Assembly: GCA_040882355.1 (NCBI GenBank)
Contig: JBBEBM010000005.1
Coordinates: 1-46,271 of the forward strand
Direction: 5' to 3'
Source of the DNA: Dehalococcoidia bacterium
GTDB taxonomy: Bacteria; Chloroflexota; Dehalococcoidia; DSTF01; RBG-16-68-14
Length of the DNA stretch: 46,271 nt
A model generated the notes under the pieces. The model saw only the letters and a list, made by a program, of their open reading frames with translations. It did not search any database and was not told the DNA's origin. Both the position numbers and the translations under genes were made by a program. Shown here in pieces: positions 7,510 through 34,918 of the stretch. Numbering within the stretch: the stretch's first letter is position 1; every line of letters starts with the position of its first letter.

Positions 7510-7716
7510 AGACGCTTCGGCTGCCGCGGCGGACTCAGGGTGACGTGAGGGCGCGGGTGGCCAGCGCGAGGATCGCATTCGATGGGGCGACGCGCGTTGC
7601 GGCGACTACGTCGCCCAGGGCGACCAGACCCTTCGACTTCGCTCAGGGCAGGCTCTCGCCCCTACGTGAGCCCGGGGCGGCCGGACCCGCCTAACGCTGG
7701 CAGGTGGTCGCCCCTA
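7510..7716. repeat. Mosaic of REP-like palindromes (TGTC/CGTC-type, GTAG-type and a nested 24-nt element)
   Basis: GCTTCG...CTCAGGGTGAC at 7510-7544; TCGCCCCTAC occurs twice; CCTTCGACTTCGCTCAGGGCAGG at 7630-7652. Confidence 0.7.
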
Positions 7717-7770
7717 CGTCGACGCGCGCGGGCGGTGGGCGAAGGGCCTCATGTTACACTGCCTGCTGCT

Positions 7771-8211
7771 ATGCAGAACTACGCTGTCGGCATCGATCTG
7801 ATCGCGATCTCGCGGGTGCAGGCGGTGCTTGACAAGCACGACGAGCGCTTCCTGCGACGCGTGTACACGCCGGAGGAGGTCGCGTTCTGCCGGGGGCGGG
7901 TGCCGGAGCTGGCGGCGCGCTTCGCGGCCAAGGAGGCGGTGATGAAGGCGCTGGGCACCGGGGCGCACGGCGTCGCCTGGCGCGAGATCGAGGTGCTGCC
8001 GAACCGTCGAGGCAAGCCGCTCGTCTACCTGTACGGCCGCGCCCAAGCCCGCGCCGAACGCATCGGCCTGCGCGCGCTGGACGTGAGCCTGACACACGAG
8101 CGCGACTTCGCGATCGCGGCCGTCGTCGGCGTGCGCGACGCGCCGGTCGAGCCGCCGGAGGAGAGTCGGGCGCGACTCGTCGCGAGGCTGAAGGAGCGCG
8201 GGCTGCTGTGA
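7771..8211 (+). CDS. acpS: Holo-ACP synthase
   Basis: VGIDLI, LAARFAAKEAVMKALGTG, GKP, VSLTHE. Confidence 0.95.
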   Translation: MQNYAVGIDLIAISRVQAVLDKHDERFLRRVYTPEEVAFCRGRVPELAARFAAKEAVMKALGTGAHGVAWREIEVLPNRRGKPLVYLYGRAQARAERIGLRALDVSLTHERDFAIAAVVGVRDAPVEPPEESRARLVARLKERGLL

Positions 8212-9758
8212 AGCTGGTCACCGCCGCCGAGATGCGCGCGCTGGAGGAGGCCGCGGCCGCCGCCGGACGCCCGCCCGACGCGCTGATGGAGGAGGCGGGG
8301 CTGGGCGTCGCGCAGGAGGTGTGGATCAACCTGGGCGCGGTGCCCGAGCGGAAGGTGGTCGTGCTGGTGGGGCCGGGCAACAACGGCGGCGACGGTCTGG
8401 TCGCGGCGCGCCACCTGCACGACCTGGGCGGGCAGGTCGTCGTGCTGCTGCTGACGCCGCGCGGCGAACACGACGCGAACCTGCGCCAGGTTGTCGAACG
8501 TGATGTGTCGGTGCGGACACTGACCGACCACGACCTTGCGCCCCTCGACGAGGCACTGGCCGGCGCGGATGCGGTCGTCGACGCGGTGCTCGGCACGGGG
8601 CGCGCGCGACCGCTCGAAGGCGCGATGGCCGATGTGCTCGACCGGGTCGCGGAGGCGCGCGCGGCGACGGCCGGGCCGCGCGTGATCGCGGTCGACCTGC
8701 CGACGGGCGTCGACTGCGACACCGGCGCCGCCGACCCGCGCGCGCTGCCCGCCGACGCGACGATCGCGCTCGGCTGCTCGAAGGTCGGGCTGCACACGCT
8801 GCCGGGCGCGGAGTACGCGGGACGCGTCGACGTGATCGACATCGGGCTGCCGCGCGAAGCGGTCGAGGCGCTGCCCGTCGAGCTGCTCAACGCGCGCTGG
8901 GTGCGCGAACGGTTGCCAGCGCGGCCAGCGAACGCGAACAAGGGAACGTTCGGGCGAGTGCTGGTCGTTGCCGGGTCGAAGCTCTACGTCGGCGCGGCGC
9001 GGCTGGCGGCGTTGGGCGCGCTGCGGAGCGGCGCCGGGCTGGTCACGCTGGCCTGCCCGTCGAGCGTGCAACCGCTCGTCGCGGGCGGCATGCACGAGGT
9101 GACGTACCTGCCGCTGCCCGATCGCGATGGCTTCGTCGCGCCGGAGGCGGCGGTGGAGGTCGCCCGAGCGCTCGATTCGTACGACGTGCTGCTGATCGGG
9201 CCGGGGCTCGGCCAGGGCGCGGCGCAGGAGTCGTTCGCGCGACAACTGCTGTGCGCGCTCGCGGCGAACGGGCCGAAGGTGCTCATCGATGCGGACGGGC
9301 TGAACGCGCTGGCGACGCTGCCCCATTGGTGGGAACGCGTCGCGGCGCCGTGCGTGCTGACGCCGCACCCGGGCGAGCACTCGCGTCTCACCCGACGCGC
9401 CGTCGCCGGTGTCCAGCGCGACCGGCTCTCGTCGGCGCGGGATGCGGCGGCGACGTGGGGGCAGACGGTGGTGCTGAAGGGGGCGTACACGGTGGTCGCC
9501 GCGCCCGACGGCCGCGCGGGCGTGAACCCGTACGCGAACCCGGCGCTGGCGTCGGCGGGCACGGGCGACGTGCTCGCGGGCGCGATCGCGGGGCTGATGG
9601 CGCAAGGCCTCTCCCCGTTCGAGGCGGCGTGCTGCGGAGCGTACCTGCACGCCGCCGCCGCCGAAGGGCTGCGCGCGGTGTCGGGCGACGCCGGCCTGCT
9701 CGCGGGCGACCTGCTGCCGGAGCTGCCGCGCACCCTCCGCGAGCTGCGCGGCGTCTGA
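8208..9758 (+). CDS. nnr: Bifunctional NAD(P)H-hydrate epimerase/dehydratase (YjeF)
   Basis: GPGNNGGDG, VDAVLGTG, VDLPTG, NKGTFG, IDADGLN, LTPHPGE, AGTGDVLAG. Confidence 0.95.
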   Translation: MKLVTAAEMRALEEAAAAAGRPPDALMEEAGLGVAQEVWINLGAVPERKVVVLVGPGNNGGDGLVAARHLHDLGGQVVVLLLTPRGEHDANLRQVVERDVSVRTLTDHDLAPLDEALAGADAVVDAVLGTGRARPLEGAMADVLDRVAEARAATAGPRVIAVDLPTGVDCDTGAADPRALPADATIALGCSKVGLHTLPGAEYAGRVDVIDIGLPREAVEALPVELLNARWVRERLPARPANANKGTFGRVLVVAGSKLYVGAARLAALGALRSGAGLVTLACPSSVQPLVAGGMHEVTYLPLPDRDGFVAPEAAVEVARALDSYDVLLIGPGLGQGAAQESFARQLLCALAANGPKVLIDADGLNALATLPHWWERVAAPCVLTPHPGEHSRLTRRAVAGVQRDRLSSARDAAATWGQTVVLKGAYTVVAAPDGRAGVNPYANPALASAGTGDVLAGAIAGLMAQGLSPFEAACCGAYLHAAAAEGLRAVSGDAGLLAGDLLPELPRTLRELRGV

Positions 9759-9761
9759 GCG

Positions 9762-10562
9762 CTACGGCGGCGCCTGCTGGCCGAAGTGGGACACGACCTG
9801 GCCGATGTCGCCGATGCTGACTGTACCGTCCCAATCGATGTCTGCCGCGGGTAGCGCAGGCGGCACGGTCTGGCCGAAGCGCTGCCGGACCTCACCGACG
9901 TCGCCGATCGAGACCCAGCCGTCGCCGTTCACGTCCCAGACGAACGCGCAGTCGATGGTGAGCGCCTCGGCGGGCCCGAGATCGGGCACCGCCTGGTTGT
10001 TCTCGTTCGTTATGTGGCCGTCCGGCGACGGGCCGTTGGGTGCGGTGACGGTCTCCACGCCGATGGCCGAGCACGTGTAGTCCACCTCGACAAACTTGCC
10101 TGTGTAGGTGGAGCCAAACACGCCGATGCCGAGGCCGCAGCCAATCAAGTAGTCCATGGCGCCCTTGGACTCCGCCGCAATTTCGCAGTCCGGCCAGAAC
10201 CGCCCGGCAAAGGGACCCATCTCGGTCGTCTGTGGCCGGTTGTTGAGGGTGAGCGCTGCCGAGGTGAGCAGCCGGATTTGGACGCCGTTGTAGCCGGCGA
10301 CGGTGTCGCCGTCGTCGTCGATCAGCCCGGCCAGCTTCTTGATGTGGCCCTCTACCGTGAACATCTTGCCGAGCGCCACCCGGCACATCGAGCCCACCGG
10401 AGTGGCCGGGTCCGTGTCGCAGACCATGCCCTGGCCCTTGAGCACGATGTCGGGACTGGGGCCGGCGGCACGCGCGCCTTCCCGCTGTTCGCCCGCGACA
10501 GCGAGCGCGACGAACGCAACTACGAGTACCACGAAGATCGACCGAACGAACCGCGTTGTCAT
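9762..10562 (-). CDS. Secreted protein: 6-Cys cohesin-like domain plus C-terminal dockerin-like repeat
   Basis: N-terminal signal peptide; two Ca-loop repeats, DVNGDGWVSIGD and DIDWDGTVSIGD; paralogous to 10590 and 41547. Confidence 0.75.
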   Translation of the reverse strand: MTTRFVRSIFVVLVVAFVALAVAGEQREGARAAGPSPDIVLKGQGMVCDTDPATPVGSMCRVALGKMFTVEGHIKKLAGLIDDDGDTVAGYNGVQIRLLTSAALTLNNRPQTTEMGPFAGRFWPDCEIAAESKGAMDYLIGCGLGIGVFGSTYTGKFVEVDYTCSAIGVETVTAPNGPSPDGHITNENNQAVPDLGPAEALTIDCAFVWDVNGDGWVSIGDVGEVRQRFGQTVPPALPAADIDWDGTVSIGDIGQVVSHFGQQAPP

Positions 10563-10589
10563 TGTCCTGCCTCCATCCCCTGAGCCGCG

Positions 10590-11399
10590 CTACGGTGGCG
10601 CCTGCTCGCCGAAGTGGGCGACGACCTCGCCGATGTCGCCGACGTTGATTGTGGCGTCGCCCGTCACGTCGAACTCGATCGCGACAGGCGGCACGGTCTG
10701 GCCGAAGAAGTGCACCACGCGGCCGATGTCGCCCACGGAGACCCAGCCATCGCCCGTCACGTCCCAGATGAACGCGCAGTCGATGGTGAGGATGTCGAGC
10801 TCGTTGCCGTCAGGGACGTAATAGCTCTCCCCATCAAGGAAGCTGTCCGGCGGCGGGCCGTTCGGCAGAGTGACTGAGAATACGCCAAGTGTCGTGCAGG
10901 TATAGTCCACTTCGGCCACCTTGCCCAGGTGGATGGAGCCAAACAACCCGATACCGAGGCCGCAGCCCGCCTGGTAGTTTGTTGGGCTGACCTTGGACTC
11001 GGCACGGATCCCGCAGTCCGGCCAGTAGGGCGCGGCCGCAGGGCCCAGCTCCGTCTGCTGCGGCCGGTTGTTCAGCGACAGCGCCGGCGACGTCAGCAGG
11101 CGCAGCCCTATCCCACCATAGCCGGCAATTGTGTCGCCGTCGCTGTCGTGCAGGCCGGCGATCTTGTCGATGTATACCTCGACGGTTAACTGCCCGCCGA
11201 GGGGCAGGCGGCACGTGTCGGGCTTCCCGGTGTTGGGGTTCGTGTCGCAGTTCCGATTCTTTCCTGCGATGGACAGCTCCGGCGTGACGGTGTTCGCCTC
11301 CGCCGGTTGAGAACCCCAACTCAGGATGAGCGGTAGCGCCAACCCCACTGCGACCGCTGTCGCGAAGCCAAGCGTCAGTGTGATTCGTGCCGTACTCAT
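10590..11399 (-). CDS. Secreted protein: 6-Cys cohesin-like domain plus dockerin-like repeat
   Basis: GGAGG SD before ATG 11399; signal peptide; DVTGDGWVSVGD and DVTGDATINVGD; tandem paralog of 9762. Confidence 0.75.
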   Translation of the reverse strand: MSTARITLTLGFATAVAVGLALPLILSWGSQPAEANTVTPELSIAGKNRNCDTNPNTGKPDTCRLPLGGQLTVEVYIDKIAGLHDSDGDTIAGYGGIGLRLLTSPALSLNNRPQQTELGPAAAPYWPDCGIRAESKVSPTNYQAGCGLGIGLFGSIHLGKVAEVDYTCTTLGVFSVTLPNGPPPDSFLDGESYYVPDGNELDILTIDCAFIWDVTGDGWVSVGDIGRVVHFFGQTVPPVAIEFDVTGDATINVGDIGEVVAHFGEQAPP

Positions 11400-11489
11400 C
11401 GTGCGCCACCTCCCGCTGTCCTGCGAGCGTTCGCCAGTGACCCATGCGGCCAGCGTGCCTAGTATACACCTTGTGTCAAGCCCGCCGTC

Positions 11490-11518
11490 TTGACGCGAGC
11501 CGCTAGCCCTGGTATGCT
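11490..11518 (+). promoter_or_regulatory. Sigma70-type promoter of the btu/cob operon
   Basis: TTGACG-17 nt-TATGCT just upstream of the riboswitch. Confidence 0.7.
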
Positions 11519-11541
11519 CCGCCTTGACAACTGAAGAGCGC

Positions 11542-11658
11542 GTGCGGAGGTGCCCGGGAGCCGTCTCCCGGGAAGAGCGAAGCCGGTGCGAATCCGGCGC
11601 TGTCGCGCAACTGTGATTCCGCCCACCGCGGATAAGCCAGGTCGCCTGCCTCCGCCAC
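11542..11658 (+). ncRNA. Cobalamin riboswitch
   Basis: AAGAGCGAAGCCGGTGCGAATCCGGCGCTGTCGCGCAACTGT...AAGCCAGGTCGCCTGCC (B12 box), upstream of corrinoid uptake and salvage genes. Confidence 0.93.
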
Positions 11659-11711
11659 ATGTCACGTAGCCTTCGCGGAAGAGGCGCGGTCATTGCGAAC
11701 ACGCAGCGTCC

Positions 11712-11739
11712 AAGCCCTTGCTGAGGCAAGGGCTTTTTT
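11712..11739 (+). terminator. Intrinsic terminator (riboswitch expression platform)
   Basis: AAGCCCTTGC-TGAG-GCAAGGGCTT followed by a T tract. Confidence 0.85.
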
Positions 11740-11812
11740 GTTGCCGGAGCGCAGTTCTCGCCTGTTCCGTGGGGCGCCGAACAAACGGACGGGGGGAGAG
11801 AGGAGCACACGC

Positions 11813-16514: not shown

Positions 16515-16526
16515 GCTGGGCGCGCC

Positions 16527-17102: not shown

Positions 17103-17848
17103 CCCGCCTTGCGATGGGGCTGTCGCGCCGAAAGGGAGCCGTCGACGAAGACACCGTAGCCGCGGTACGGCGCCGTCTGGATGAGCTGGCCGTCCTGACC
17201 CAACGCGCGCAGCTTGCGTCGCAGGTTGCTCACGTGCGCCCGCACGAGCTGCGCGCCGCCCAGGCCGCCATCGTACCCCCAGACCTCCTCCAACAGCTCC
17301 TCCGCCGGCGCAAGCTGGCCCGGACGTTGCATGAGATAGCGCAGCAGGCGGAACTCGGTGGGCGTCAGCTCCAGGACGCCGCCGCCGGCGAAGAGGAGCT
17401 GCTGCGTCACGCCGTCCAGCGCCACGCTACCGACGCTCAGCAGATCGTCGGGCCGGCGTCTGGAGTCGGCCGCGATCACCTTCGCCACGGCGCGCGTCAG
17501 GTCGCGCGCGGCGACGGGCTTGGTGACCACACCATCGCAGCCCTCCTGAAAGCACCCCGGCAGGGCACCCGGAACGAGCTTCGCGGACGCGGGCGCGAAC
17601 ATCACAATCGGTGGACGGGGCCGGCCCTGGCTGTCGCAGATCCAGCGCAGCAGACGTTCGACCTCGCCGGTCGGGAACAGGCTGTCGAGACAGATCGCGT
17701 CGACATGCAGGCGCGAGAGGGCGCGCTGCGCCTTGCGCAGCGTCGACGCGGTAAGCGGCGCATAGCCGGACGCCATGAGGCAGCCCTCCGCAGCGCGGAG
17801 CACAGCATCATCCGGACTGACTACCAATACCTGGGCAGCCGACTCCAT
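17099..17848 (-). CDS. OmpR-family response regulator with atypical receiver
   Basis: Winged-helix signature LTPTEFRLLRYLM...VWGY...VRAHVSNLRRKL...GYG; the receiver lacks the N-terminal acidic pair. Confidence 0.85.
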   Translation of the reverse strand: MESAAQVLVVSPDDAVLRAAEGCLMASGYAPLTASTLRKAQRALSRLHVDAICLDSLFPTGEVERLLRWICDSQGRPRPPIVMFAPASAKLVPGALPGCFQEGCDGVVTKPVAARDLTRAVAKVIAADSRRRPDDLLSVGSVALDGVTQQLLFAGGGVLELTPTEFRLLRYLMQRPGQLAPAEELLEEVWGYDGGLGGAQLVRAHVSNLRRKLRALGQDGQLIQTAPYRGYGVFVDGSLSARQPHRKAG

Positions 17849-19937: not shown

Positions 19938-20597
19938 CTATTCCCACAGGCAGCCGACGCCCGCCGCCTCCGCCTCACCCTCCAGCGCGACGAGCGTGTC
20001 CCGGTACGCGCCGTCGTCGCGCCAGGCATGGCCGAGCCCCTCGGCGATAAGCAGCGCTTCGATCGAGTCGCCGCCCTCCGTGAACACGTAGCGCAGCAGG
20101 CGGTCGTAGCGGTCTCGTTCGCGAGCGTCCGGCAGGAGCAGGACACGCTCGCCGGCGAGCGCCTGGTTGCGGTCGGTCGCCTCCGAGAAACAGTCGTCGC
20201 CCCGCTCGGTCGTATCGACGCCGTAGTAACGCACGCGCTCTTCGCGGCCGTCGATGCGCACGTCGATCGTGTCGCCATCGACGATGTGCACCACGTCAGC
20301 CCGTTCGAGGAGCGCCGGATCGGGCGAGATGTCCGGCGCGGCGACGCCTGCCCTGAGCGAAGTCGAAGGGAGCAGCGTCGCCGTCGGGACCGGCGTGCCG
20401 GCGACCGGCGAGACGAGCGCGCCGGCGGTGGGCGTGGGCACGGCCGCTTCGTCGCCGGCGCCCGAGAGCCGGCTCAGCAGCCAGGCGACGCCAAGCAGCA
20501 CGAGCGCGCCCACGAGCCAGAGGTTGCTTCGGCGGCGCAGGAAGGGGGTCTTGACGATGGGCGGCAGCTTGCGGCGGGAGCGGCGGCGGCGGGCCAT
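19938..20597 (-). CDS. Membrane-anchored thermonuclease (SNase) family protein
   Basis: TM segment, VDGDTI, RVRYYGVDTTE, DRYDRLLRYV; PSTSLRAG insertion in the linker. Confidence 0.9.
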   Translation of the reverse strand: MARRRRSRRKLPPIVKTPFLRRRSNLWLVGALVLLGVAWLLSRLSGAGDEAAVPTPTAGALVSPVAGTPVPTATLLPSTSLRAGVAAPDISPDPALLERADVVHIVDGDTIDVRIDGREERVRYYGVDTTERGDDCFSEATDRNQALAGERVLLLPDARERDRYDRLLRYVFTEGGDSIEALLIAEGLGHAWRDDGAYRDTLVALEGEAEAAGVGCLWE

Positions 20598-20709
20598 GCG
20601 GATCATTGTAGGCTGGCGCGGTCGCGTGCTCCAGCAGCGCGCCTACCTTGACAGCCGGCGCTATACTGGGGCCGCGACGAGAGGGGAGCCAGTCGAACTG
20701 AGGGCAGCG

Positions 20710-26400: not shown

Positions 26401-26506
26401 GCCGAAGTCGCTCGAGCTGGCGGTGCCGTTGAAGGTAGACGTGAAGGTGGGCACCAACTGGGGCGAGCTGGAGGTGATGCCGGCCGTCGCCAGCGCGGGC
26501 GGGTGA
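23477..26506 (+). CDS. polA: DNA polymerase I
   Basis: LLDGH, YEADD, GDTSDNIPGVPGIG, TGRLSS.DPNLQNIP, ADYSQIELR, LQVHDEL; GTG 6 nt after TATAAT. Confidence 0.97.
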   Translation: MSPKKPTKNHGDGAPRLVLLDGHGIIHRAYNAFREPLTVRKTGEVVTAVFGFANSLLTVIEQLKPTHVAVALDPHGPTFRHVKDETYKAQRFESLKGRVANTIAGLSAPDEFKSALAEAVAPAASPDQMRSGITTAVEEMDVPEPVKRELLKSMQPLDRLREIGQQSARVEDLINVFNLPIYRLDGYEADDVLGTLAKQADDAGIETYLVTLDSDIIQLITDGVKVFMMRPYQRDVVIYDPAKAKERYGIEPQQMPDFKGLKGDTSDNIPGVPGIGDKTAVKLIDQFGSVEALYEHIEDVTPEKLRENLRRHETEARHSKEMATIRKDAPVTLDLDACALAHYDREAVAELFRDLEFKSLVPRLPEPAAPEGNGHRATATTEAVLADQEYRTVFTEKELDALVKRIASAKAFSFDTNTTDSHAMRASLVGVSLSWAPGQAAYVPVGHRPGLGDPEQLSIEAVAKKVAPLFEDERIEKSGHNTKFGMEVLHNHGIEVRGVAFDTMLAAYLLGEGAGTESARAGSGSLGLKWIVSKVLNVEMSEIEELIGKGAKQLSMSDVSVEQAAPYACADADMAGRLRPLLEAELKEQGLWPLFNEIEMPLVPVLARMEETGVAVDTDALREMSRGLGEQAAQLEQQAYDSVGHEFNLGSPQQLSQVLFEELGLPKTRRMKQGYTTDATALEGLRGTHAVIDILLEWRQITKLKSTYIDALPALVHPKTGRIHTNFNQMVAATGRLSSQDPNLQNIPVRTPLGNAIRRCFVARDYGPEPVLLAADYSQIELRILAHLSGDERLIEAFRQDEDIHATTASDVFGVPIDEVTSDMRRRAKVFNFGVLYGLSEFGLSTRESISREEAAGFIETYFAKYPKVREWREGVIKSCRELGYAETMVGRKRFVPEIRSSNFQVRSAGERIAVNMPAQGTASDIIKIAMNKIDTELIERGLTTKMILQVHDELIFEGPAKDRDAVQEMVLRIMPKSLELAVPLKVDVKVGTNWGELEVMPAVASAGG

Positions 26507-26516
26507 GGGCCCTTTC

Positions 26517-26543
26517 TGTCATGCTGAGCGAAGCGAAGCATCT
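26517..26543. repeat. TGTC/CGTC-type REP-like palindrome
   Basis: TGTCATGCTGAGCGAAGCGAAGCATCT; relatives at 7510, 27516 and about 44629. Confidence 0.75.
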
Positions 26544-26585
26544 GGCCCTCCTAGAAAGCGCTACAATCCTCCGTGAGATCCGGGC

Positions 26586-26807: not shown

Positions 26808-26853
26808 GTCGTTTGCTCGACTGGCACCTGGTTGCGCTGTGGGATGTCAATTA

Positions 26854-27285
26854 GTGCCGCACTACCGCATCACGTTCAGTCGCAGCGGACGGAGCGCGCG
26901 CGGCGCGCCGGTGCTGTGGTTCGTGCCGATGCCGAAGGACATGTTTCCGAAACGCGAGGTTGTTCTGATGGAGGCTCCCGGCGCTCGTGACGCAATCACG
27001 GCCTTCGTGAAGCGCGAGAACGTCGCTGTGGATCTCGAGCGGCCGGTGCGAGGATCGCCTCTGCTGCACGGCTGGTTCCTCTCGGGAAAGACGACGATCG
27101 CCGAATACATCGACAGCTTCGTGGGCGGTCGCAGGCGCTCGCTCTCGTTCAACGCGCCCAACGACGTTCGGTTTCGCATCCTGTCGATTGCGGAGGAGCC
27201 GGAACCCGCGAGCGGCATCGCCGGCACCGATGGCTACCAGCAACCCTTCGCTTCGCTCGAGGGCAGGCCGGCGACGAGCGACTAG
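26854..27285 (+). CDS. Hypothetical protein
   Basis: ORF fills the gap before mutM with plausible composition; its C-terminus contains a copy of the 24-nt element; start uncertain. Confidence 0.55.
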   Translation: MPHYRITFSRSGRSARGAPVLWFVPMPKDMFPKREVVLMEAPGARDAITAFVKRENVAVDLERPVRGSPLLHGWFLSGKTTIAEYIDSFVGGRRRSLSFNAPNDVRFRILSIAEEPEPASGIAGTDGYQQPFASLEGRPATSD

Positions 27286-27297
27286 CGACCAGTCACC

Positions 27298-28305
27298 ATG
27301 CCTGAGCTGCCCGAAGTAGAGACGCTGCGGCGCGACCTCCAGCGGGCGGTTGTCGGGCGGACGATCACGGAGGCGCGGGTGGCGCCGGACGCGCCGCGGC
27401 TCGTGCAGGAGATGCCGGTCGATGTGTTCACGACCGGCCTGCGCGGGCGGCGCATCGACGGGATCGCGCGGCGGGGCAAGTACCTGTTGATACGCCTCTC
27501 TGCGGAAGCTGCGACAGATCCTTCGCCCTCCACCCCGCCGCCGCCATCCCCGCCCCGCTCAGCTCAGGATGACACCAGTGGGTTGTGGTGGGTGGTGCAC
27601 CGGCGCATGTCGGGCAACCTGATCCATCGAGCCGCCGGCGCGCCGGACGAGCCGTACCTGCGGGCGCGCTTTCGACTCGACGACGGGAACGAGCTGCGCT
27701 TCATCGACCTGCGCAAGTTCGGCACCATGTGGCTCACCGACGACCCACAGGCCGTCGTCGCCGCACTCGGCCCGGAGCCGCTCGACGACGCGTTCACGGT
27801 CGAAACGCTCGCGGCGGTGCTGGCGAAGCGGTCGGCGCCGGTGAAGGCGGTGCTGCTGGACCAGACGGCGATCGCCGGCCTCGGCAACCTCTACGCAGAC
27901 GAGGCGCTCCACTACGCCAGCGTCCACCCGCTCCGGCCGGCGAACGGTCTGACGCCGGACGAGGTCGCCTGCCTGCGCGACAGCATCGTGCGGGCGCTGG
28001 AGCAGGGGCTGGCTAACCTGGGGAGCAGCATCGGCTACGCGGACGGCGAAGAGGTGAGCCTGCGCGACCACGTCAACCTCAGCGGCGAGGCCGGCGGGAA
28101 CCAGGAGTACCTCGTCGCGTACGGCCGCGAAGGGCGCCCCTGCCGGACGTGCGGCACGCCGATCGAGCGACTGAAGCTGAGCAATCGCAGCGCGCACTTC
28201 TGTCCTCGCTGCCAGCCGCGCGCGATTCTCAAGCGGAAGCGGTCGAGAGCGAAAGCGAAGAAGGCGACGAAGGCGAAGGCCACACGAACGGCGGAGACGT
28301 CGTAG
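27298..28305 (+). CDS. mutM: Formamidopyrimidine-DNA glycosylase
   Basis: MPELPEVET, RRGKYL, LLDQ..IAGLGNLYADE, zinc finger CRTC...CPRCQ. Confidence 0.96.
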   Translation: MPELPEVETLRRDLQRAVVGRTITEARVAPDAPRLVQEMPVDVFTTGLRGRRIDGIARRGKYLLIRLSAEAATDPSPSTPPPPSPPRSAQDDTSGLWWVVHRRMSGNLIHRAAGAPDEPYLRARFRLDDGNELRFIDLRKFGTMWLTDDPQAVVAALGPEPLDDAFTVETLAAVLAKRSAPVKAVLLDQTAIAGLGNLYADEALHYASVHPLRPANGLTPDEVACLRDSIVRALEQGLANLGSSIGYADGEEVSLRDHVNLSGEAGGNQEYLVAYGREGRPCRTCGTPIERLKLSNRSAHFCPRCQPRAILKRKRSRAKAKKATKAKATRTAETS

Positions 28306-28408: not shown

Positions 28409-28474
28409 GGACGCCTCGGACGCACCGCTGGTTGACTTTTGTTCGCCGCGGGCGCACCCTTAGGGCGAGGTCAG

Positions 28475-29320: not shown

Positions 29321-29357
29321 CATTAGCTACCGCCGATAGGCTAGAAATGGAGGCGGC

Positions 29358-31790
29358 ATGAAGACCACCCAAATCTACAAGCGACTAGCACAACTGGCCC
29401 GCGAGGATACGGCTATCCGCGACTTGCTGGGAGTGACTGACCATGTCTTTGAGGACTGCGTGAACATCACGAAGACGGTCACCACGCACATGCGGGAGTA
29501 CACGCTGCACGACGAGGTCCATCTCACGAACGTGGTCCAGCTCATGGACCGGCTCCTACCTGAGTCTATCCTGAAGCGCCTCCAGCCTCTTGAGCTTGCG
29601 GCGCTGATCATGAGCGCAGCGCTTCATGACATTGGCATGGCACCGCCCGAGGACGAGGTGCGGTCTCTGCTGCGCGCCGCAGAGGGCGAAGTAGAGGATG
29701 AGGCGCAGCTCCGTTACGCCTCATTCAGGCAAGCATACGGTCCCCTAATTCGAAGGCAGGAACGACTGCGTGCAGAACGCCGATACGCAGAGGCCCAGGA
29801 AGTAGAGGCATACCTTCTCGCCGAGTACCTGCGGCAAGACCATGGTGCCCGCTCACGCGAGGTGATATTCTCTCGCTTCGACAACCGCCTCAAGTACCGC
29901 GACTTCCACCTCGCAGGGCGCCTGGCCGAGGTGTGCGCCAGCCACACCGAGGACGTGGCAACGCTTGAAGAGATCCCATGCTGGGAGCTCGTCGCGCCGC
30001 CCGGCGAGTATGCCAACTGGCGCTTCGTCGCAGTCTTGCTACGCCTCGCCGACATCCTCGACTTCGATCCGAAGCGCACGCCGCGCGTGCTCTTCGAGCA
30101 CCTTGGTGTGCGAGACCCAATCAGCGTGCGAGAGTGGCGCAAGCACCGCGCTATCACTGGCTGGGACGTCGCCACAGGCAGGATCGCATTCTCGGCCCAG
30201 TGCCCAGATCCGGTCATAGAGAAGACCATTAGAGACTTCGTAGCGCTAATCGATCAAGAATTGACCGCGGCACGAGCCACGATCGCGGGAATGCACGACA
30301 AGAGGCAGCCCGGCCTTAGCGACAGGTACAGCCTGAATCTCCCTCCCAACGTCGAGACCGGCGACATCCGCGCAGCTGAGGGACGCGATGGTCCGCCATA
30401 TACATACGTCGATGTGGCGTTCGAGCTCGATCAGGACAGCGTCAAAGGCCTATTAATGGGAGTTCGCCTGTATGCGAATCGCCTGCTCTTCTTGCGTGAG
30501 CTGCTGCAGAACGCTGTTGACGCATGCCGGCACCGGGCTGCTTTGCATGCCCGGCGACCTGATCTCGGCAAGTACGAGCCGCGCGTGATCGTCCGTGCCT
30601 TGCGAGACGGCGGCCGGGAGTTCCTGGAAGTTGACGACAACGGAATGGGCATGAGCCAAGAGATAATACAGCGCTACTTTGCGAGGATAGGCACAAGCTA
30701 CTACTCATCGCCTTCCTTCCTCCAAGAGAGAGCGCGGTGGGGCCTACCATTCAAGCCAATCTCGCAGTTTGGGATCGGCGTTCTATCAGTCTTCATGGCC
30801 GGAGATTTATTGGAGGTGGAAACGCTGAGGTTCGGTGAGAACTCCCAGCCAGTAGCTACGGAGATCGCCAGCGAGGGATCCCTTTTCTGGTTCCGCAAAG
30901 GACATCGCAATGCTCCGGGGACTCGGATCTCAGTCCGTCTGGTTTCATCTTTGGAGAGACTGTTGGCAAATGCCAACTTGTTCCGCTACATGCCAATTAG
31001 CCAGCTACTGGGTCCTAGATCGAGCAACGACAGCGCCAACGCCCTAGTCAACGCTGTCTCACGCTTGGCGCCTCACGTCGAGATTCCAATTGAGGTTCAT
31101 GTGGGCGGTGAGACTTTCGTCCTGAAGATGTCGTGGCTAGCGTTTGATACAACGGCAGGGCAGACTCGGCGCATAGACCTGGATATGACTGGCCCTCACG
31201 CACTCCACGGCCTAACCGGCAGGGCCAGTGTCTTTCTCCTGACTTCGGGCGGGAAATTCGTATCAAGGATGACTCTCAGTGGCCAGACGAAGGCATCCTC
31301 CTGGGATGAGGTCCTCCATCTGCGGCATGATTTGCAAGATGGCAGCATCGTCTACAAGAATCGGCAGGACGCCGTGGGCTCCTATGTTCCCGATCTGGTT
31401 TCGACCGACGGCAGATGGAGTCAGCAGGGATTCACTGTCCCAGACAGGCTGTTCGACATTCTCTATATGAACGCCTTCGAGTTTCCGAGCTTTACACCGC
31501 TCACGCCCTTTCCATTTCCGATCCACTATGACATAGATTTATCAGATCCCTTGTGCCTTCCACTTACGGTAGATCGCAAGGAAGTTATTCGTGGCGAAGA
31601 GGCTGCAGCAATCGGCCTGAAGATATCGGGCACCTTGTCGCGCCGCTTCCTTGAGGTGCTGGGACCAGAAGCCGTGCAGCGTAATCGCGAGTTCTTTGAG
31701 CAGGCAAAGCTCGTCTTTCCAGACAGCCCATTCGCGGAAGCTCTAGATAGATTCCTCGCCACTCAAGCCAGGGAGCATCCGTTGGCATGA
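29358..31790 (+). CDS. HD-domain plus HSP90-like (GHKL) ATPase fusion protein
   Basis: YTLHDEVH, ALHDIGM, DHGARS, CASH, LRLADILD; then LRELLQNAVDA, DDNGMGM, SQFGIG, GTRI; lower GC. Confidence 0.88.
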   Translation: MKTTQIYKRLAQLAREDTAIRDLLGVTDHVFEDCVNITKTVTTHMREYTLHDEVHLTNVVQLMDRLLPESILKRLQPLELAALIMSAALHDIGMAPPEDEVRSLLRAAEGEVEDEAQLRYASFRQAYGPLIRRQERLRAERRYAEAQEVEAYLLAEYLRQDHGARSREVIFSRFDNRLKYRDFHLAGRLAEVCASHTEDVATLEEIPCWELVAPPGEYANWRFVAVLLRLADILDFDPKRTPRVLFEHLGVRDPISVREWRKHRAITGWDVATGRIAFSAQCPDPVIEKTIRDFVALIDQELTAARATIAGMHDKRQPGLSDRYSLNLPPNVETGDIRAAEGRDGPPYTYVDVAFELDQDSVKGLLMGVRLYANRLLFLRELLQNAVDACRHRAALHARRPDLGKYEPRVIVRALRDGGREFLEVDDNGMGMSQEIIQRYFARIGTSYYSSPSFLQERARWGLPFKPISQFGIGVLSVFMAGDLLEVETLRFGENSQPVATEIASEGSLFWFRKGHRNAPGTRISVRLVSSLERLLANANLFRYMPISQLLGPRSSNDSANALVNAVSRLAPHVEIPIEVHVGGETFVLKMSWLAFDTTAGQTRRIDLDMTGPHALHGLTGRASVFLLTSGGKFVSRMTLSGQTKASSWDEVLHLRHDLQDGSIVYKNRQDAVGSYVPDLVSTDGRWSQQGFTVPDRLFDILYMNAFEFPSFTPLTPFPFPIHYDIDLSDPLCLPLTVDRKEVIRGEEAAAIGLKISGTLSRRFLEVLGPEAVQRNREFFEQAKLVFPDSPFAEALDRFLATQAREHPLA

Positions 31791-32413
31791 AAAGTAAGCT
31801 GACCGTCGCGCGCGGGTACGACCGCATCGCGGAGGGGTACCTGCTCTGGCGCACGACGCTCGGGCGTGAGAAGCGCGACCTCGGCTACATCGAGCGGCTC
31901 GCCGAGGGTCTGCCGGAGGGCGCCCGCGTGCTCGACCTCGGCTGCGGGGCGGGCACGCCGTACACCGCCTACCTGAGCGAGCGCTTCGAGGCGTTCGGCA
32001 TCGACATCTCGCGGGCGCAGCTTGCGCTGGCGCAGGTGCACGCGCCGAAGGCGTCGCTGGTGCTCGGCGACATGGCGTCGCTGCCGTTCGCGACGGCGTC
32101 GTTCGACGCGATCACCGCCATCTACTCGATCATCCACGTGCCGCGCGAGGAGCACGAGGCGCTGCTCGCGGCGCTGCACACGCTGCTGCGGCCGGGCGGT
32201 CGGGCGCTCGTCGTGCTGGGCGCGAACGCGTGGGAGGGCGTCGACGAGGACTGGCTCGACCTGGGCGCGACGATGTTCTGGAGCCACTTCGACGCGGAGG
32301 CGAGCCGGTCGATGATCGAGGGCGCGGGGTTCCGCGTGCTCGAGTCGGCGATCGAGGAGGACGACGACCACGACTCGTGGCACCTCTTCGTCGTCGCGGA
32401 GAAGCCGGCATGA
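31787..32413 (+). CDS. Class I SAM-dependent methyltransferase
   Basis: VLDLGCGAG, GIDIS, LRPGG. Confidence 0.9.
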   Translation: MKSKLTVARGYDRIAEGYLLWRTTLGREKRDLGYIERLAEGLPEGARVLDLGCGAGTPYTAYLSERFEAFGIDISRAQLALAQVHAPKASLVLGDMASLPFATASFDAITAIYSIIHVPREEHEALLAALHTLLRPGGRALVVLGANAWEGVDEDWLDLGATMFWSHFDAEASRSMIEGAGFRVLESAIEEDDDHDSWHLFVVAEKPA

Positions 32414-33435
32414 AGCACGATCACCTCTCGCTGGACGCGATCACGGACGTGACCGGCGTCAAGGTCGGCCACTGGAGCGACAGGCGCGGCGCAACCGGCT
32501 GCACGGTCGTCCTCTGCCCGCCCGAGGGCGCGGTCGGCGGCGTCGACGTGCGAGGCGGCGCGCCCGGCACGCGCGAGACCGACGCGCTCCGGCCGGGCCG
32601 CCTCGTCGAGCGCGCGCACGCGATCGTGCTCGCGGGCGGGTCGGCGTTCGGCCTGGACGCCGCTGGCGGCGTGATGCGCTACCTGGAGGAGCAGGGCGTC
32701 GGCTACGCGTTCGGCGCAGGCACCCCGCGCGTCGGGGTGGCCCGCATCCCAATGGTCGCCGCCGCCTGCATCTTCGACCTCGGCATCGGGCGAGCGACGG
32801 CGCGACCGGACGCCGACTCGGGCTATCGCGCTGCGAAGTCGGCGAAGGGCGGCGCGGTCGACCAGGGCAGCGTCGGCGCGGGCACCGGTGCGACCGTCGC
32901 GCACGCCGGCGGTCGCGAGCGCCAACTGAAGGGCGGTGTCGGCACCGCGTGCGAGCGCGGCCCGGGCGGCCTGCTCGTGGGCGCGCTCGCCGCCGTCAAC
33001 GCCGCCGCCGACATCTTCGACCCCGCCACGGGCCGCGTCATCGCGGCGCCGCGCGCGGACGGCGGCGGCTTCATGGACGGCTGGGAGCTCGTGCGCACAG
33101 CGGCGACGCCGGAACCGCAGCCCGGCGAGCACACCACGCTCGCCGTCGTGGCAACGAACGCGCGGCTCACGAAGGAGCAGACGAACCGAGTCGCGGCGGT
33201 CGCTCACGACGGCTTCGCGCGGGCGGTGCGCCCCGCGCACACGATGGTCGACGGCGACACCGTCTTCGCGCTCGCGACGGGCGAGCTGCCCGTCGACGAG
33301 CCGCGCCTCATTCGCGCGGTCGAGGCGCTGGCCGCGCGCGCAGTCGAACGCGCGATCGTGCGGGGCGTGCTCTGCGCGACGGCGCTCGCGGGCGTGCCGT
33401 CGGCGCAGGAGTGGCTGGCGGAGTCGATGGGGTAG
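32410..33435 (+). CDS. P1/S58 (DmpA-like) peptidase
   Basis: ITDVTGVKVGH, DVRGGAPGTRET, GGSAFGL, GAGTGA, HTTLAVVATN, DGDTVF. Confidence 0.9.
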   Translation: MKHDHLSLDAITDVTGVKVGHWSDRRGATGCTVVLCPPEGAVGGVDVRGGAPGTRETDALRPGRLVERAHAIVLAGGSAFGLDAAGGVMRYLEEQGVGYAFGAGTPRVGVARIPMVAAACIFDLGIGRATARPDADSGYRAAKSAKGGAVDQGSVGAGTGATVAHAGGRERQLKGGVGTACERGPGGLLVGALAAVNAAADIFDPATGRVIAAPRADGGGFMDGWELVRTAATPEPQPGEHTTLAVVATNARLTKEQTNRVAAVAHDGFARAVRPAHTMVDGDTVFALATGELPVDEPRLIRAVEALAARAVERAIVRGVLCATALAGVPSAQEWLAESMG

Positions 33436-33473
33436 AAGGCGGTGGATACATCCTCAAGAAGGAGAGTTCTCTT

Positions 33474-33560
33474 ACCCGCCCATCCCGCCCAAAGACGCAA
33501 TTTACATCCTGGGGGACACCCCCAAACCCCCGGCAGGGGGCGCCGCCCCCTGCACCTCCG
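33474..33560. repeat. GGGGACAC-type repeat copy
   Basis: GGGGGACACCCCCAAACCCCCGGCAGGGGGCGCCGCCCCCTGCACC. Confidence 0.75.
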
Positions 33561-33625
33561 CCTGCGCACGCGAATCGCGTATCTGCGATTGCAGAGTGGG
33601 CCCCCAATCACCAGCAACGTCTGAT

Positions 33626-34720
33626 CTAGGGCAGGGACTCGCTGAGGCGGCTGGGTGGGCGTGGCTCGGAGCAGGCGGGCGTCGTGTTGGCGAATGCCCA
33701 GTCGAAGAGGGCGGTGGCATCGGCATAGCGGTCCCAGCTTCCCAGCAGCGAGAGGAGGACGGTGCGCCCGTCGCGCTCGGCCGCCGCGACGATCGACTGG
33801 CCCGCCGCGGCCGTATAGCCTGTCTTGACACCGATGGCGCCGGGGTACTGGTAGAGGAGCTGGTTGCCGTTCCACACGGGCGGCGCCTCCCAGCCAGGCT
33901 GATACGTCTTCGTGCTCACGATCGCCGCAAGCTCAGGCCGTGAGAGGAGTTTTCGTCCGAGCACGGCGATGTCGAAGGCCGACGTGTAGAGGCCCTGCTC
34001 ATCGAGCCCGTGCGGGTTGGTGAAGTGGGTGTTGTGCAAGCCGAGCTCGGTCACCTTCAGGTTCATCATCTGGACGAAGGCAGGCACCGTGCCGCCAACG
34101 TGCTGACCGATAGCAAGCGCCGCGTCGTTGCCGGACGGCAGGAGCAGCCCGTAGAGGAGGTCTTGCATGCTCAGGCGCTGGCCGGGCTGCAGGCCCATCA
34201 CCGACGAGCCGTTCGACGCCTTCATGAGCGCGCCGTTCACGTCGATGTCCACCAGCTCGTCGAAGAGGGCGTGATCATCGGCGACCAGGGCGGTGACGAT
34301 CTTCGTCAGGCTCGCCGGCGCGACGCGCTGATGCGGCTCTTTGGTGTAGAGGAGGGCGCTGCACGACGGCTCCATGACGACGACGCTGCGAGCGCTCACT
34401 TGCGGCGCGGGCACGGCCGTCGGCGTTGCCTGGGGAGGCGCCCCGGGTCCGCTGCAATCTGAGCCCTGGCATTCGGTCGTGGCATTGTCGCACGCGTCGC
34501 CCGGCGCGCAGCCGTCCGAGAGCACGACGGACTGCGGCGTGGCGGTCGATTCGGCGGTGGGCGGGGCGCTGACGCTGGATCCGTCCGACGTTCCCGCCGA
34601 TGAGAAGGAGCGGTAGGCCAGCGCGGCGATGACGAGGACACCTGCCAGGAGGACGACCGTCCACCACAGCCGGTCCGACCGGCGGCGGGGCGGTGGGCGC
34701 CCGTACCAGAGCGAGGGCAT
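33626..34720 (-). CDS. D-alanyl-D-alanine carboxypeptidase (peptidase S11)
   Basis: TM anchor; SxxK (ASLTK), SGN, NPHGL, KTG. Confidence 0.93.
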   Translation of the reverse strand: MPSLWYGRPPPRRRSDRLWWTVVLLAGVLVIAALAYRSFSSAGTSDGSSVSAPPTAESTATPQSVVLSDGCAPGDACDNATTECQGSDCSGPGAPPQATPTAVPAPQVSARSVVVMEPSCSALLYTKEPHQRVAPASLTKIVTALVADDHALFDELVDIDVNGALMKASNGSSVMGLQPGQRLSMQDLLYGLLLPSGNDAALAIGQHVGGTVPAFVQMMNLKVTELGLHNTHFTNPHGLDEQGLYTSAFDIAVLGRKLLSRPELAAIVSTKTYQPGWEAPPVWNGNQLLYQYPGAIGVKTGYTAAAGQSIVAAAERDGRTVLLSLLGSWDRYADATALFDWAFANTTPACSEPRPPSRLSESLP

Positions 34721-34813
34721 CGGGGCCTACTATAACAGGGTGTTCGAATATGGGCTAGGCGGGTTCGCCTACGGCGGGCGCATCTGAACGTTCGAAGAGA
34801 ACAGATGTTGTCT

Positions 34814-34918
34814 ACCCGCCCGCCCAGGAAGGAAAATGGAGTCTGGGGGACACTCCTTCGGCTCCGCTCAGGACAGGCCTCAGGCCCCCGGCAGGCGCCT
34901 CTGGCGCCCTGCACCCCC
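34814..34918. repeat. GGGGACAC-type repeat interrupted by the 24-nt element
   Basis: GGGGGACAC[TCCTTCGGCTCCGCTCAGGACAGG]CCTCAGGCCCCCGGCAGG. Confidence 0.78.

Follow-up and report, generated by a model that had tools for sequence, protein, structure and literature searches.

The DNA analysed here contains a discrete 24-nt unit, a relative of TGTC-type REPs, that is probably non-autonomous and copied and pasted in trans, likely via a single-stranded intermediate. Comparison of filled and empty sites shows that it enters both other repeats and ordinary enzyme genes as one block, in the genes without breaking the reading frame and with a gain of eight residues that related proteins are without. 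The window, that is, the whole stretch analysed, comprises 46,271 nt of contig JBBEBM010000005.1 (GCA_040882355.1) from a Dehalococcoidia bacterium, whose genome is labelled G000. A first-pass annotation had located four cores in it, at 7630-7652 (+), 20347-20369 (-), 27245-27267 (+) and 34855-34877 (+), always preceded by a pyrimidine and followed by C. All four are present, with C, C, C and T as the preceding base and C as the following base in every case. Including the preceding base, the copies are:

7629..7652, plus strand: 24-nt unit, subtype A (C-CCTTCG-ACTTC-GCTCAGGG-CAGG), nhmmer E 4e-5
20346..20369, minus strand: 24-nt unit read as PSTSLRAG, in a thermonuclease-family gene whose nearest relative is without those 8 residues
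27244..27267, plus strand: 24-nt unit of subtype B (4-nt spacer, GCTCGAGGG); the fpg/mutM start lies 31 nt further on, at 27298
34854..34877, plus strand: 24-nt unit of subtype C, with stem TCCT/AGGA, interrupting the host hairpin TGGGGG-ACA-CCCCCA after ACAC and before CCCC

The pattern CCTTCG-N11-13-CAGG matches five times in the window against 0.43 expected, a number reached by none of 100 shuffles; the fifth match (17479-17501) is without the features of the family and was set aside as a chance occurrence. The 7630 and 20347 cores are identical at 23/23 bases, and a search with their 23-mer allowing up to 3 mismatches returned 3 matches versus 0 expected. The equal core length of the four copies holds, but the "compensating indel" ascribed to the 27245 copy recurs elsewhere and marks a subfamily (4-nt spacer and the subtype B sequence given above), from which the two commonest core sequences of the genome come, with 9 and 7 of 63 copies. 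Nor does the placement of this copy in frame in a hypothetical ORF stand. ORF 26839-27285 exists mechanically only, and because it has no Pfam match, no homologue among 40 relatives and weak codon-position GC, the copy is best read as intergenic.

The genome holds 63 strict copies, whereas a backwards control gave none. Their length is not random: 47 have a core of 23 nt and the other 16 one of 22 nt, and tandem copies repeat with a period of 24, as in an array found with TRF (period 24, 5.2 copies, 99% matches). The consensus of the unit is C-CCTTCG-RCTYC-GCTC-AGGR-CAGG, then usually CYC. Most copies are single and scattered over many contigs, with arrays in the minority; a minisatellite or simple tandem repeat was rejected, since copies are not confined to one locus or to head-to-tail arrays. 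Strand orientation, followed along three large chromosomes or contigs, shows runs and no clean two-replichore pattern.

The likeness to the local TGTC-type REPs that had been noticed in the window extends to a common loop and stem plan. Both kinds of element have a stem of 4-5 bp and a conserved 11-12 nt loop (TCG-N4-5-GCTC), and in both the stems covary (CCCT/AGGG and TCCT/AGGA in the 24-mer; ATTCT/AGAAT, ATGCT/AGCAT, ACCCT/AGGGT and ATCCT/AGGAT in the TGTC type). The 24-mer is a sister of the TGTC-tagged mini-hairpin REPs of the same genome, one of which lies in the window:

26513..26545, minus strand: sister element with TGACA/TGTC tag (stem ATGCT/AGCAT, loop TCGCTTCGCTC), just after a 1164-aa ORF ending at 26506

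Nearest-neighbour DNA folding of 27-mers gave -1.6 to -3.0 kcal/mol with z of 0.04 to 0.57, which does not exceed the stability of shuffles on either strand. The opposite strand carries GCGNAGC in 31/63 copies, a DNA mini-hairpin reported (PMC13037366) to be extraordinarily stable; subtype A has GCGAAGT in its place.

Two of the window copies lie inside longer repeats, which also occur without the unit:

7616..7665, plus strand: GTAG-type host palindrome, filled, 50 nt; its empty form (26 nt, CAGGGCGACCAGATGGTCGCCCCTAC) is found elsewhere in the genome
33469..33561 (ends approximate), plus strand: host repeat 2, empty copy, an internal empty site recognised by repeat spacing
34811..34920 (ends approximate), plus strand: host repeat 2, filled copy, upstream of the D-Ala-D-Ala carboxypeptidase gene 33626-34720 (-)

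The 24-nt gap said to separate the 34845 repeat from its uninterrupted copy at 33511 is exact (left-part spacing 1334, right-part spacing 1358). Genome-wide, host repeat 2 (~100 nt) occurs 16 times empty and 10 times filled, the filled form being the empty one plus TCCTTCGGCTTCGCTCAGGACAGG: a clean +24 without duplication and without junction similarity. The GTAG palindrome has 12 empty copies (26 nt) and is filled at 50 nt in 3 copies and at 49 nt in 4, a net gain of +24 or +23 in which 27 nt stand in place of TGG (3 nt); the CYC triplets flanking the unit there are not copies of the target. Further, the loops of TGTC-type hairpins at C15:11277 and C79:12630 hold a nested unit in reverse orientation (49 nt vs 25 nt). 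Within other hairpin repeats the unit occupies the loop or adjoins it, and overall it is found in at least five unrelated contexts. Junctions are not uniform, as seen in the exchange in the GTAG host and in gains of +21 at two gene sites. We rejected a MITE, since there are no terminal inverted repeats and host repeat 2 gains exactly 24 nt without target-site duplication.

The same difference is found in genes. At all seven in-gene sites tested the empty alleles of orthologues are 24 nt shorter, except that the difference is 21 nt for crotonase and, in comparison with some of the orthologues, for the antisense copy of the glyoxalase gene. The share of orthologues without the unit ranges from 12/12 to 72/75:

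Acyl-CoA synthetase: +24; 72/75 orthologues without the unit
PEP-utilising enzyme: +24; 17/17 informative orthologues without the unit
Glyoxalase-like protein: two copies, +24 and +21/24; 15/15 orthologues without them
Short-chain dehydrogenase: +24; 14/15 orthologues without the unit
Crotonase: +21; 12/12 orthologues without the unit
19938..20606, minus strand: thermonuclease-family ORF, SNase domain at residues 124-221, unit in the linker before the domain

The thermonuclease copy is indeed in frame and adds 8 aa, the nearest relative, P0002 (89% identical), being without exactly PSTSLRAG; GC3 of this ORF is 0.97 and 0.85 on the two sides of the unit. The crotonase insert adjoins the conserved segment GAG..AF(C/S)xG. 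In G000, L257 and G004 one loop of acyl-CoA synthetase carries the unit in sense orientation; in G007 the loop has gained +48 as two antisense units in tandem. A single clade of the three sense-filled rows was rejected by the AU test (p = 0.019), with rows grouped by the feature itself and a poorly resolved gene tree (7/22 inner branches open). At the dehydrogenase site, subtype B is present in G000 and subtype A in G004. A count of reading frames, which the first-pass annotation had called for, showed that in-gene copies use two only: sense copies read CCT TCG (5/5), a frame also found in G004, L257 and a 688-aa Aequorivita ORF, and antisense copies use one frame common to the 2 tested and to 2 untested ones near N-termini.

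Beyond this genome, the pattern is present in 13/15 genomes of the same family (0-42 copies each), and a wider scan recovered at least 124 loci in at least 20 named phyla, a near letter-for-letter 24-mer occurring in genomes with GC from 34% to 76%. Among the 130 matches listed, the free spacer is ACTTC in 33, GCTTC in 20, GCTCC in 11 and ACTCC in 9, and the preceding base is C in 109. Viral contigs contain 112 stretches with the unit. In Leeuwenhoekiella the genome's only copies, two in number, are both in one group II intron, and a Bacteroidales MAG has the unit at the same intron site and nowhere else. Against the Rfam model RF02001 (group-II-D1D4-3), the unit in the Leeuwenhoekiella intron is a 25-nt insertion between positions 51 and 52, and its being a substructure of group II introns was rejected on that account.

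The annotation had stated that the window contains no mobilising gene. This is correct, and none lies beside the copy clusters either, where the 19 flanking ORFs scanned included no recombinase. G000 has three Y1_Tnp (RAYT-like) genes, each flanked by its own, different REP. Over 41 genomes, the number of Y1 matches does not track unit copy number: G003 has 25 copies and 0 Y1 matches (90% completeness), while G034 has 1 copy and 6 Y1 matches. The filled and empty sites bear out the proposal of a small non-autonomous unit; its mobility is deduced from them.

We infer that insertion proceeds either by HUH/RAYT-like single-stranded processing or by template switching. The unit would be non-autonomous and copied and pasted in trans, most likely through a single-stranded, circularly permutable intermediate processed by a HUH/Y1 (RAYT-like) nuclease or an equivalent. 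Such a route is suggested because the unit forms period-24 arrays, because the last three bases of single copies are those with which another unit would begin, and because there are half-unit duplications (AABB) in which every block terminates in CT. Targets would be exposed single-stranded hairpin loops. Insertions in genes would survive because the unit is 8 codons long and 5/6 reading frames are open, and selection would keep those read P-S-x-S-L-R-A-G (sense) or P-A/V-L-S-x-A-E-G (antisense), where these fall in a loop or linker whose length varies among orthologues. Since passenger genomes such as Leeuwenhoekiella never multiplied the unit, it may require a host factor that is not present everywhere. 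As a tentative extension, which we hold to be possible but would not bet on, the unit may be a self-contained module, active now or until recently in at least 20 named bacterial phyla and moved by a widespread, though non-universal, candidate ssDNA machinery. Its targets would be exposed hairpin loops and a few preferred gene sites; group II introns, (pro)viral DNA and larger REPs would carry it from phylum to phylum, and enzymes would time and again gain 8-residue loops from it.

A rather unlikely alternative is templated insertion without a dedicated enzyme. A polymerase engaged in replication or repair would stall at stable hairpins, change template where a few bases are similar, taking a second copy or a tandem array, copy at least one 24-nt period and switch back, ectopic gene conversion keeping the copies alike. 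Several sites show what could be traces of such switches: the ACAGGC of the unit aligns with ACCGGC of the glyoxalase orthologues, the PEP-enzyme site has a repeated GAGCC, in the acyl-CoA synthetase gene a second GCTCAG closely follows the unit, and the crotonase target is a palindrome, CGCCGGCG. The exchange of 27 nt for 3 nt in the GTAG host, gains in multiples of one period (+24, +48, the 5.2-copy array), the half-unit duplications and the failure to find an enzyme adjoining the copies also agree with it, and different subtypes at one orthologous site would fit conversion. However, the seamless junctions of host repeat 2 have no such similarity, and template switching leaves unexplained both the near identity of the 24-mer across phyla of such different GC and its failure to multiply in passenger genomes.

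It is improbable that the 24-mer is itself immobile, being a loop module of larger composite REPs moved by RAYTs, with in-gene copies as leftovers. Each host repeat does have one subtype, the same in all its filled copies, so host-repeat copy number may come from a composite spreading as one piece; a RAYT gene of G007 has, on its 3' side only, GTAG palindromes with the 24-mer in their loops; and the Aequorivita in-gene copy arrives with an outer TGTC-type hairpin. Nevertheless, at 6/7 of the sites within G000 genes the gain is no more than 24 or 21 nt and host-repeat flanks are absent, pure 24-nt arrays occur in G000 and in other phyla, and the unrelated contexts of the unit number at least five. 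Still less probable is a functional motif (a binding site, or an RNA or DNA hairpin in 3' untranslated regions) kept by selection wherever it arises, with no insertion. Extreme conservation across phyla, stem covariation and the position of 17/49 classed intergenic copies between convergent genes, whose spacers make up ~20% of classed intergenic length, would suit it, but it is not credible that a 24-nt block arose de novo in seven genes as well as in a group II intron, the in-gene copies lie in both orientations (5 sense, 2-4 antisense) and Rfam gave no family match for the unit; a function may have been acquired after insertion. Finally, retro-insertion, in which a reverse transcriptase, for example that of a group II intron, copies motif-bearing RNA into breaks, would accommodate the motif in introns of two Bacteroidota genomes but is very improbable, as the motif is an insertion relative to the intron model and this genome (94% completeness) has 63 copies with no match to RVT_1 (reverse transcriptase) or to group II domain 5-6.

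If the self-contained-module reading is true, this would be the smallest known mobile unit that reshapes proteins. The inserts themselves show a route for the one-step gain of 8-residue enzyme loops, that beside the conserved crotonase segment included. More generally, the unit offers unusually clean material on how CGTC/TGTC-kind REP-like repeats spread without a known transposase: an exact length, empty and filled sites within one genome and between orthologues, the same codon position entered more than once across genera, nested and tandem forms resembling products of a circular or tandem template, and natural dead-end introductions, where a group II intron holds the only copies of two genomes. 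The search for its machinery is therefore testable, by phylogenetic profiling and ssDNA biochemistry. For annotation, the unit explains short GC-rich islands, odd protein insertions and spurious ORFs in many phyla, and for assembly it explains some breaks, 9/68 copies being at contig edges.

Among known systems, the first-pass annotation had been reminded of Rickettsia palindromic elements (RPE), which are about 100-150 bp long with long palindromic arms. The resemblance is apt in that the unit, at seven sites, is an in-frame insert in apparently functional genes whose orthologues are without it, and so is the qualification that it is far shorter: with 24 nt, 8 codons and a 4-5 bp stem it is several-fold smaller. 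It also differs in reaching beyond one genus and in striking the same loop repeatedly in different genera.

Di Nocera et al. 2013 (PMC3733652) place RPE-4 and RPE-6 in the CGTC superfamily. The CGTC/TGTC/CCTC-tagged REPs described there are short hairpins with an unpaired end tag from 5 phyla; they lie within genes in some species and have no dedicated transposase adjoining them, as is also true of the 24-mer. The local TGTC-tagged sisters fit this description and end in TGACA (TGTCA on the hairpin strand). For the superfamily a stem of 8-9 bp, A-T pairs first, and a 4-5 nt loop are given; the sisters in one reading have ATNCT/AGNAT (5 bp), two G.A oppositions, two G-C pairs and a 3-nt loop. 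The 24-mer has the loop and stem plan of the sisters but ends in CAGGC, so that its hairpin strand starts with GCCTG and with none of the three tags, and its stem, compared by description only, is of 4-5 bp (4 bp in CCCT/AGGG). Head-to-tail one-period arrays, nesting in other repeats and occurrence in at least 20 named phyla, against the 5 of that account, set it further apart.

As for REP/BIME with RAYT, both systems are hairpin repeats. In the GTAG REP/RAYT REPtron, however, the RAYT gene is flanked by the same repeat, while none of the three Y1 genes of G000 is flanked by the 24-mer; the unpaired GTAG tetranucleotide that marks one hairpin end in that system is absent from either strand of the unit and belongs to the host palindrome at 7616-7665. 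RAYTs are not known to insert single REPs, not even in E. coli. TnpAREP (RAYT), as presented by Ton-Hoang et al. 2012 (PMC3333891), acts on single strands, requires little beyond a CT dinucleotide, transfers strands, and was modelled with single-stranded circles and rolling-circle amplification; such a circle model could yield period arrays and CT-ending half-unit duplications. The 'peel and paste' elements IS200/IS605, as far as the same text describes them, have two subterminal hairpins, whereas the unit has one small hairpin and carries no transposase; TnpB was not found in this genome, and the unit has no clear replichore strand bias. Common to both are a seamless gain without target duplication and a link to hairpins and ssDNA.

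Inspection of the sequence located the four copies of the 24-nt unit that the first-pass annotation had reported in the window. The window also has two riboswitches, both scoring above the Rfam gathering score:

7630 (+): copy of the unit
20347 (-): copy of the unit, identical to that at 7630 in 23 of 23 bases
27245 (+): copy of the unit, in an ORF
34855 (+): copy of the unit
11531-11667 (+): cobalamin riboswitch, 56.6 bits
1340-1419 (-): fluoride riboswitch, 36.3 bits

The pattern CCTTCG-N11-13-CAGG has five matches in the window against 0.43 expected, and none of 100 shuffles gave five or more; the fifth match, at 17479, was rejected as a family copy, as it has no other family feature in common. 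The window is contig C5 of the genome GCA_040882355.1 (here G000; 3.33 Mb, 82 contigs, 67% GC), for which the names given to relatives of the window's thermonuclease, and a host repeat shared with a Dehalococcoidia MAG, suggest a place in Chloroflexota, class Dehalococcoidia. Genome-wide, 63 copies match a strict pattern (CCTTCG-N4-5-GCTC-N0-1-RGGRCAGG), against none for the reversed pattern; a profile search yields 55 matches with E up to 0.01 and 111 with E up to 10. The core of the strict copies measures 23 nt in 47 cases and 22 nt in 16, with no other lengths. It is preceded by C in 47/63 or T in 14/63 and followed by C in 60/63, the commonest 3' triplets being CTC (24) and CCC (14). Since such repeats break assemblies, as the position of 9 of 68 copies at contig edges indicates (e.g. 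C38:41, C37:79, C49:118, C29:129), the count is a minimum. Spacers between convergent genes contain more of the intergenic copies than their share of length would give (17 of the 49 classed, such spacers making up about 20% of intergenic length by rough gene calls, which are heuristic away from the tested loci). Enrichment of this kind is usual for REPs.

A compensated indel distinguishes three subtypes. The compensating indel noted earlier in the 27245 copy is thus present, as a subfamily trait rather than a one-off.

Subtypes of the unit
Subtype A: 5-nt spacer + GCTCAGGG
Subtype B: 4-nt spacer + GCTCGAGGG
Subtype C: stem TCCT...AGGA

Seven copies show a strong coding signal on either side (GC3 at least 0.82 over 40 codons) and lie in genes with clear Pfam domains; for these, orthologue alignments revealed the predicted empty alleles, with the filled genes longer by 24 or 21 nt.

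In-gene copies of the unit compared with relatives
Acyl-CoA synthetase: +24 nt, absent in 72/75 orthologues
PEP-utilising enzyme: +24, absent in 17/17 informative orthologues
Glyoxalase-like protein, sense copy: +24, absent in 15/15 orthologues
Glyoxalase-like protein, antisense copy: +21 or +24, absent in 15/15 orthologues
Short-chain dehydrogenase: +24, absent in 14/15 orthologues
Crotonase: +21, core in the 22-nt form, absent in 12/12 orthologues
Thermonuclease of the window: +8 residues; the closest relative (89% identity, large protein collection) lacks exactly PSTSLRAG

The thermonuclease linker varies too much between genera for an orthologue comparison there. In the crotonase (L009, G000:C68:22926-23780) the seven added residues stand right after a conserved GAG and before AF(C/S)xG, a segment which is presumably part of the oxyanion hole. 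Two more copies fall close to predicted N-termini, those of a CoA-transferase and a VIT-family protein. The 27245 copy, noted earlier as in frame in a hypothetical ORF, lacks support as an in-gene copy: the surrounding ORF (26839-27285 (+), 148 aa) has weak codon-position GC, no Pfam match and no homologue among 40 relatives, and is probably not a gene.

Counting the reading frames, as had been proposed, yields just two. All five sense copies in genes read CCT|TCG, giving P-S-x-x-L-R-A-G or variants, and the antisense copies (the two compared with orthologues and the two near N-termini) read P-A/V-L-S-x-A-E-G. The sense frame recurs at two sites of the comparison genome G004, in the metagenome contig L257 and in a 688-aa ORF of Aequorivita sinensis; the antisense frame recurs in the comparison genome G007. 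Most copies carry TGA in one antisense frame and the other four frames are open, so that stops do not force the restriction. We read the two-frame use as selection for small, flexible residues in segments whose aligned length varies between orthologues; alternatively, codon structure may govern which targets are preferred.

The same block is gained by other repeats. Host repeat 2 is about 100 nt long and consists of TTCCCACCCACCCGCCCAG, about 20 variable nt, a TGGGGG-ACA-CCCCCA hairpin and a GC-rich hairpin ending CTGCACCCCC; it has no match to an Rfam family and is also found in a Dehalococcoidia MAG and in G007 (L159; L254:1510-1620). Two copies lie in the window, on both sides of a D-Ala-D-Ala carboxypeptidase gene:

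33469-33561: host repeat 2, empty
34811-34920: host repeat 2, filled

The exact 24-nt difference suspected from this pair was borne out in G000, where at least 26 copies include 16 empty and 10 filled ones, and the filled form equals the empty form plus 24 nt placed between ACAC and CCCC of the TGGGGG-ACA-CCCCCA hairpin. The GTAG palindrome occurs in 12 empty copies of 26 nt, three filled copies of 50 nt and four of 49 nt, the TGG of the empty form being replaced by 27 nt. At C15:11277 and C79:12630 the loop of a TGTC-type hairpin contains the unit, reversed and directly behind GAGC (49 nt vs 25 nt), a nesting also found in Verrucomicrobiota, Pseudomonadota, Binatota and a Flavobacterium. Because within each host repeat every filled copy carries one subtype, the composite of host and unit probably spread as one piece within the host family.

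Some sites have been filled repeatedly. A single acyl-CoA synthetase loop carries the unit in sense in G000 (+24), L257 and G004 (+21), and 48 nt, two tandem antisense copies, in G007; this antisense pair must have arisen separately. By the AU test a clade of the three sense-filled rows, a group chosen by the feature itself, is rejected (p = 0.019, log-likelihood lower by 22.6), in a tree with 7 of its 22 inner branches open. The dehydrogenase site is filled by subtype B in G000 and by subtype A in G004, which may reflect either preferred targets or conversion of copies by other copies.

In a comparison set of genomes from the family and order of G000, its own genus being absent, the pattern was found in 13 of 15 same-family genomes (0-42 copies) and in 8 of 25 from other families of the order (1-10 copies), the backwards control giving 0 in both. 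A scan of one genome per species gave at least 124 loci in at least 20 named phyla; among the loci listed, Acidobacteriota account for at least 56, Chloroflexota for at least 18, Pseudomonadota for at least 11 and Bacteroidota for at least 6, with at least 16 further named phyla, candidate-phyla-radiation lineages included. These matches are not due to chance, because positions left free agree among the 130 matches listed: the 5-nt spacer is ACTTC, GCTTC, GCTCC or ACTCC in 73, and 109 have a C directly in front. Copy-rich cases are a Sedimentisphaerales MAG (44), a Latescibacterota chromosome (64), a Dehalococcoidia MAG (67) and an Acidobacteriaceae chromosome (30). Viral and proviral contigs contain 112 stretches with the unit; a plasmid collection searched with a 24-nt array returned two weak, irrelevant matches and nothing else. 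The window stretch is also present in four sediment-metagenome runs of one study, one of which may be where it comes from.

The genome of Leeuwenhoekiella aestuarii has just two copies, both inside a single group II intron. Aligned to RF02001 (77 bits), one of them shows as 25 extra nt between model positions 51 and 52:

L221 (G041:C1:3500-9500), 2529-2950 (-): group II intron D1-D4 region, RF02001 77 bits, RF01998 29 bits

No match to domain 5-6 lies near this intron, and no long ORF adjoins it. The intron site is also that of the sole copy in a Bacteroidales MAG (81 bits). The unit can thus enter genomes as a passenger without multiplying there, which argues that some factor found in part of the genomes alone is required for it to multiply.

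In Aequorivita sinensis (L453, G043:C1) the 688-aa ORF, which seems to resemble methionyl-tRNA synthetase by its C-terminal part, lies in a region of 38% GC and has in frame, at about 1490-1540, a GC-rich island some 50 nt long; the island is a TGTC-type hairpin with the unit nested in its loop.

Block gain, arrays of its own period, nesting in loops and recurrence are observed features of the unit. An array on contig C29 has period 24, 5.2 copies and 99% matches, and pairs of period 24 or 25 occur in Vicinamibacterales, Methylomirabilis and Acidobacteriaceae; single copies overrun into a second period by three bases (CAGG then CYC), and AABB half-unit duplications at several loci have each block ending in CT. 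These features would fit a unit that is copied and pasted via a single-stranded, circularly permutable intermediate, and on balance we favour an enzyme-driven insertion unit. The main rival, polymerase template switching at short similarities, draws on the several short similarities visible at insertion junctions, and we hold it to be a good deal less probable.

A search for machinery behind such an enzyme-driven unit turned up three Y1/RAYT-like genes in G000, each flanked by its own, different REP and none by the unit, so that no linkage to them is seen. One (G000:C48:6315-6479, L003) has GTAG-type REPs on its flanks and one inside its reading frame, so that only the C-terminal half matches Y1_Tnp. 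Those at G000:C50 and G000:C32 (L001, L002) have their own flanking families, one with the hairpins GAGGGTT-GAAA-ACCCTC and CTGCGGGAT-TTA-TCCCGCAG, the other with GTAGCCGAGGCT-TTCC-AGCCTCGGC. The co-occurrence with RAYT/Y1 genes proposed for checking did not emerge: in 41 genomes Y1 counts show no clear co-variation with copy number, G003 having 25 copies and no Y1 match, and G034 one copy and six. In Aequorivita a Y1 gene lies 0.8 kb from the copy, but this was discarded as a linkage, as the copy is inside the neighbouring ORF and the Y1 gene is flanked by a different repeat of its own. In G007, a RAYT 3' end is repeated about three times (L254, G007:C5:21300-23800, about 600-1080), each time with a GTAG palindrome and, in its loop, the unit; this is a REPtron-like array. 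Given this position 3' of a RAYT, composites of palindrome and unit may be moved by RAYTs. The 19 scanned ORFs adjoining copy clusters have ordinary Pfam domains or none, with no transposase or recombinase.

Other readings were rejected as well. A 3-nt target duplication (21 nt + 3) was raised by CGC flanks at the acyl-CoA synthetase, but it does not hold as a general rule: elsewhere, the GTAG host included, the flanking bases do not copy the target. Replichore strand bias failed on three large chromosomes or contigs, which show runs and no clean switch. A group II intron origin is contradicted by the unit being an insertion relative to the intron model and by G000 (94% completeness), in which neither a reverse transcriptase nor a group II intron was matched. 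TnpB has no match in G000.

The kinship with the local TGTC-type REPs noted at first was confirmed by a common loop and covarying stems. Loops picked by TTCG-N4-5-GCTC-(N)-A alone gave 431 matches, about 142 of them expected as background, and four loop-flanking positions pair above independence (242 vs 191, 233 vs 151, 197 vs 120 and 158 vs 115). Stem haplotypes with a TGACA tail are ATGC/GCAT (20), ATTC/GAAT (18), ACCC/GGGT (10) and ATCC/GGAT (5); those with a CAGGC tail are ACCC/GGGC (19), CTCC/GGAC (14), TCCC/GGGC (13) and GCCC/GGGC (12). Pairing excess and stem haplotypes at the common loop place the unit and the TGTC-type REPs, on sequence grounds, as sister subfamilies of a single mini-hairpin family. 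A thermodynamic hairpin is unsupported by the standard energy model on either strand (-1.6 to -3.0 kcal/mol, z 0.04 to 0.57). On the opposite strand 31/63 copies carry GCGNAGC, described in PMC13037366 as an extraordinarily stable DNA mini-hairpin. Neither in the window nor at 14 loci of other phyla is the unit covered by an Rfam family.

A text search of the literature gave no description of the unit, figures and supplements, where an earlier depiction is possible, being outside its reach. The unit fails the definitions of GTAG/RAYT REPs, MITEs and minisatellites. It comes nearest to the CGTC/TGTC-tagged REPs and to the Rickettsia palindromic elements; Di Nocera et al. (PMC3733652), who found no transposase for the tagged REPs, place two of the Rickettsia elements in the CGTC superfamily. 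The unit lacks the tag that defines these kinds and, compared with them by description, appears to differ in its stem as well. As for enzymes, PMC3333891 describes TnpAREP as needing little more than CT, performing strand transfer, and modelled with circles and rolling-circle copying; the arrays, the three-base overrun and the CT-ending blocks of the 24-nt unit recall this modelled action.
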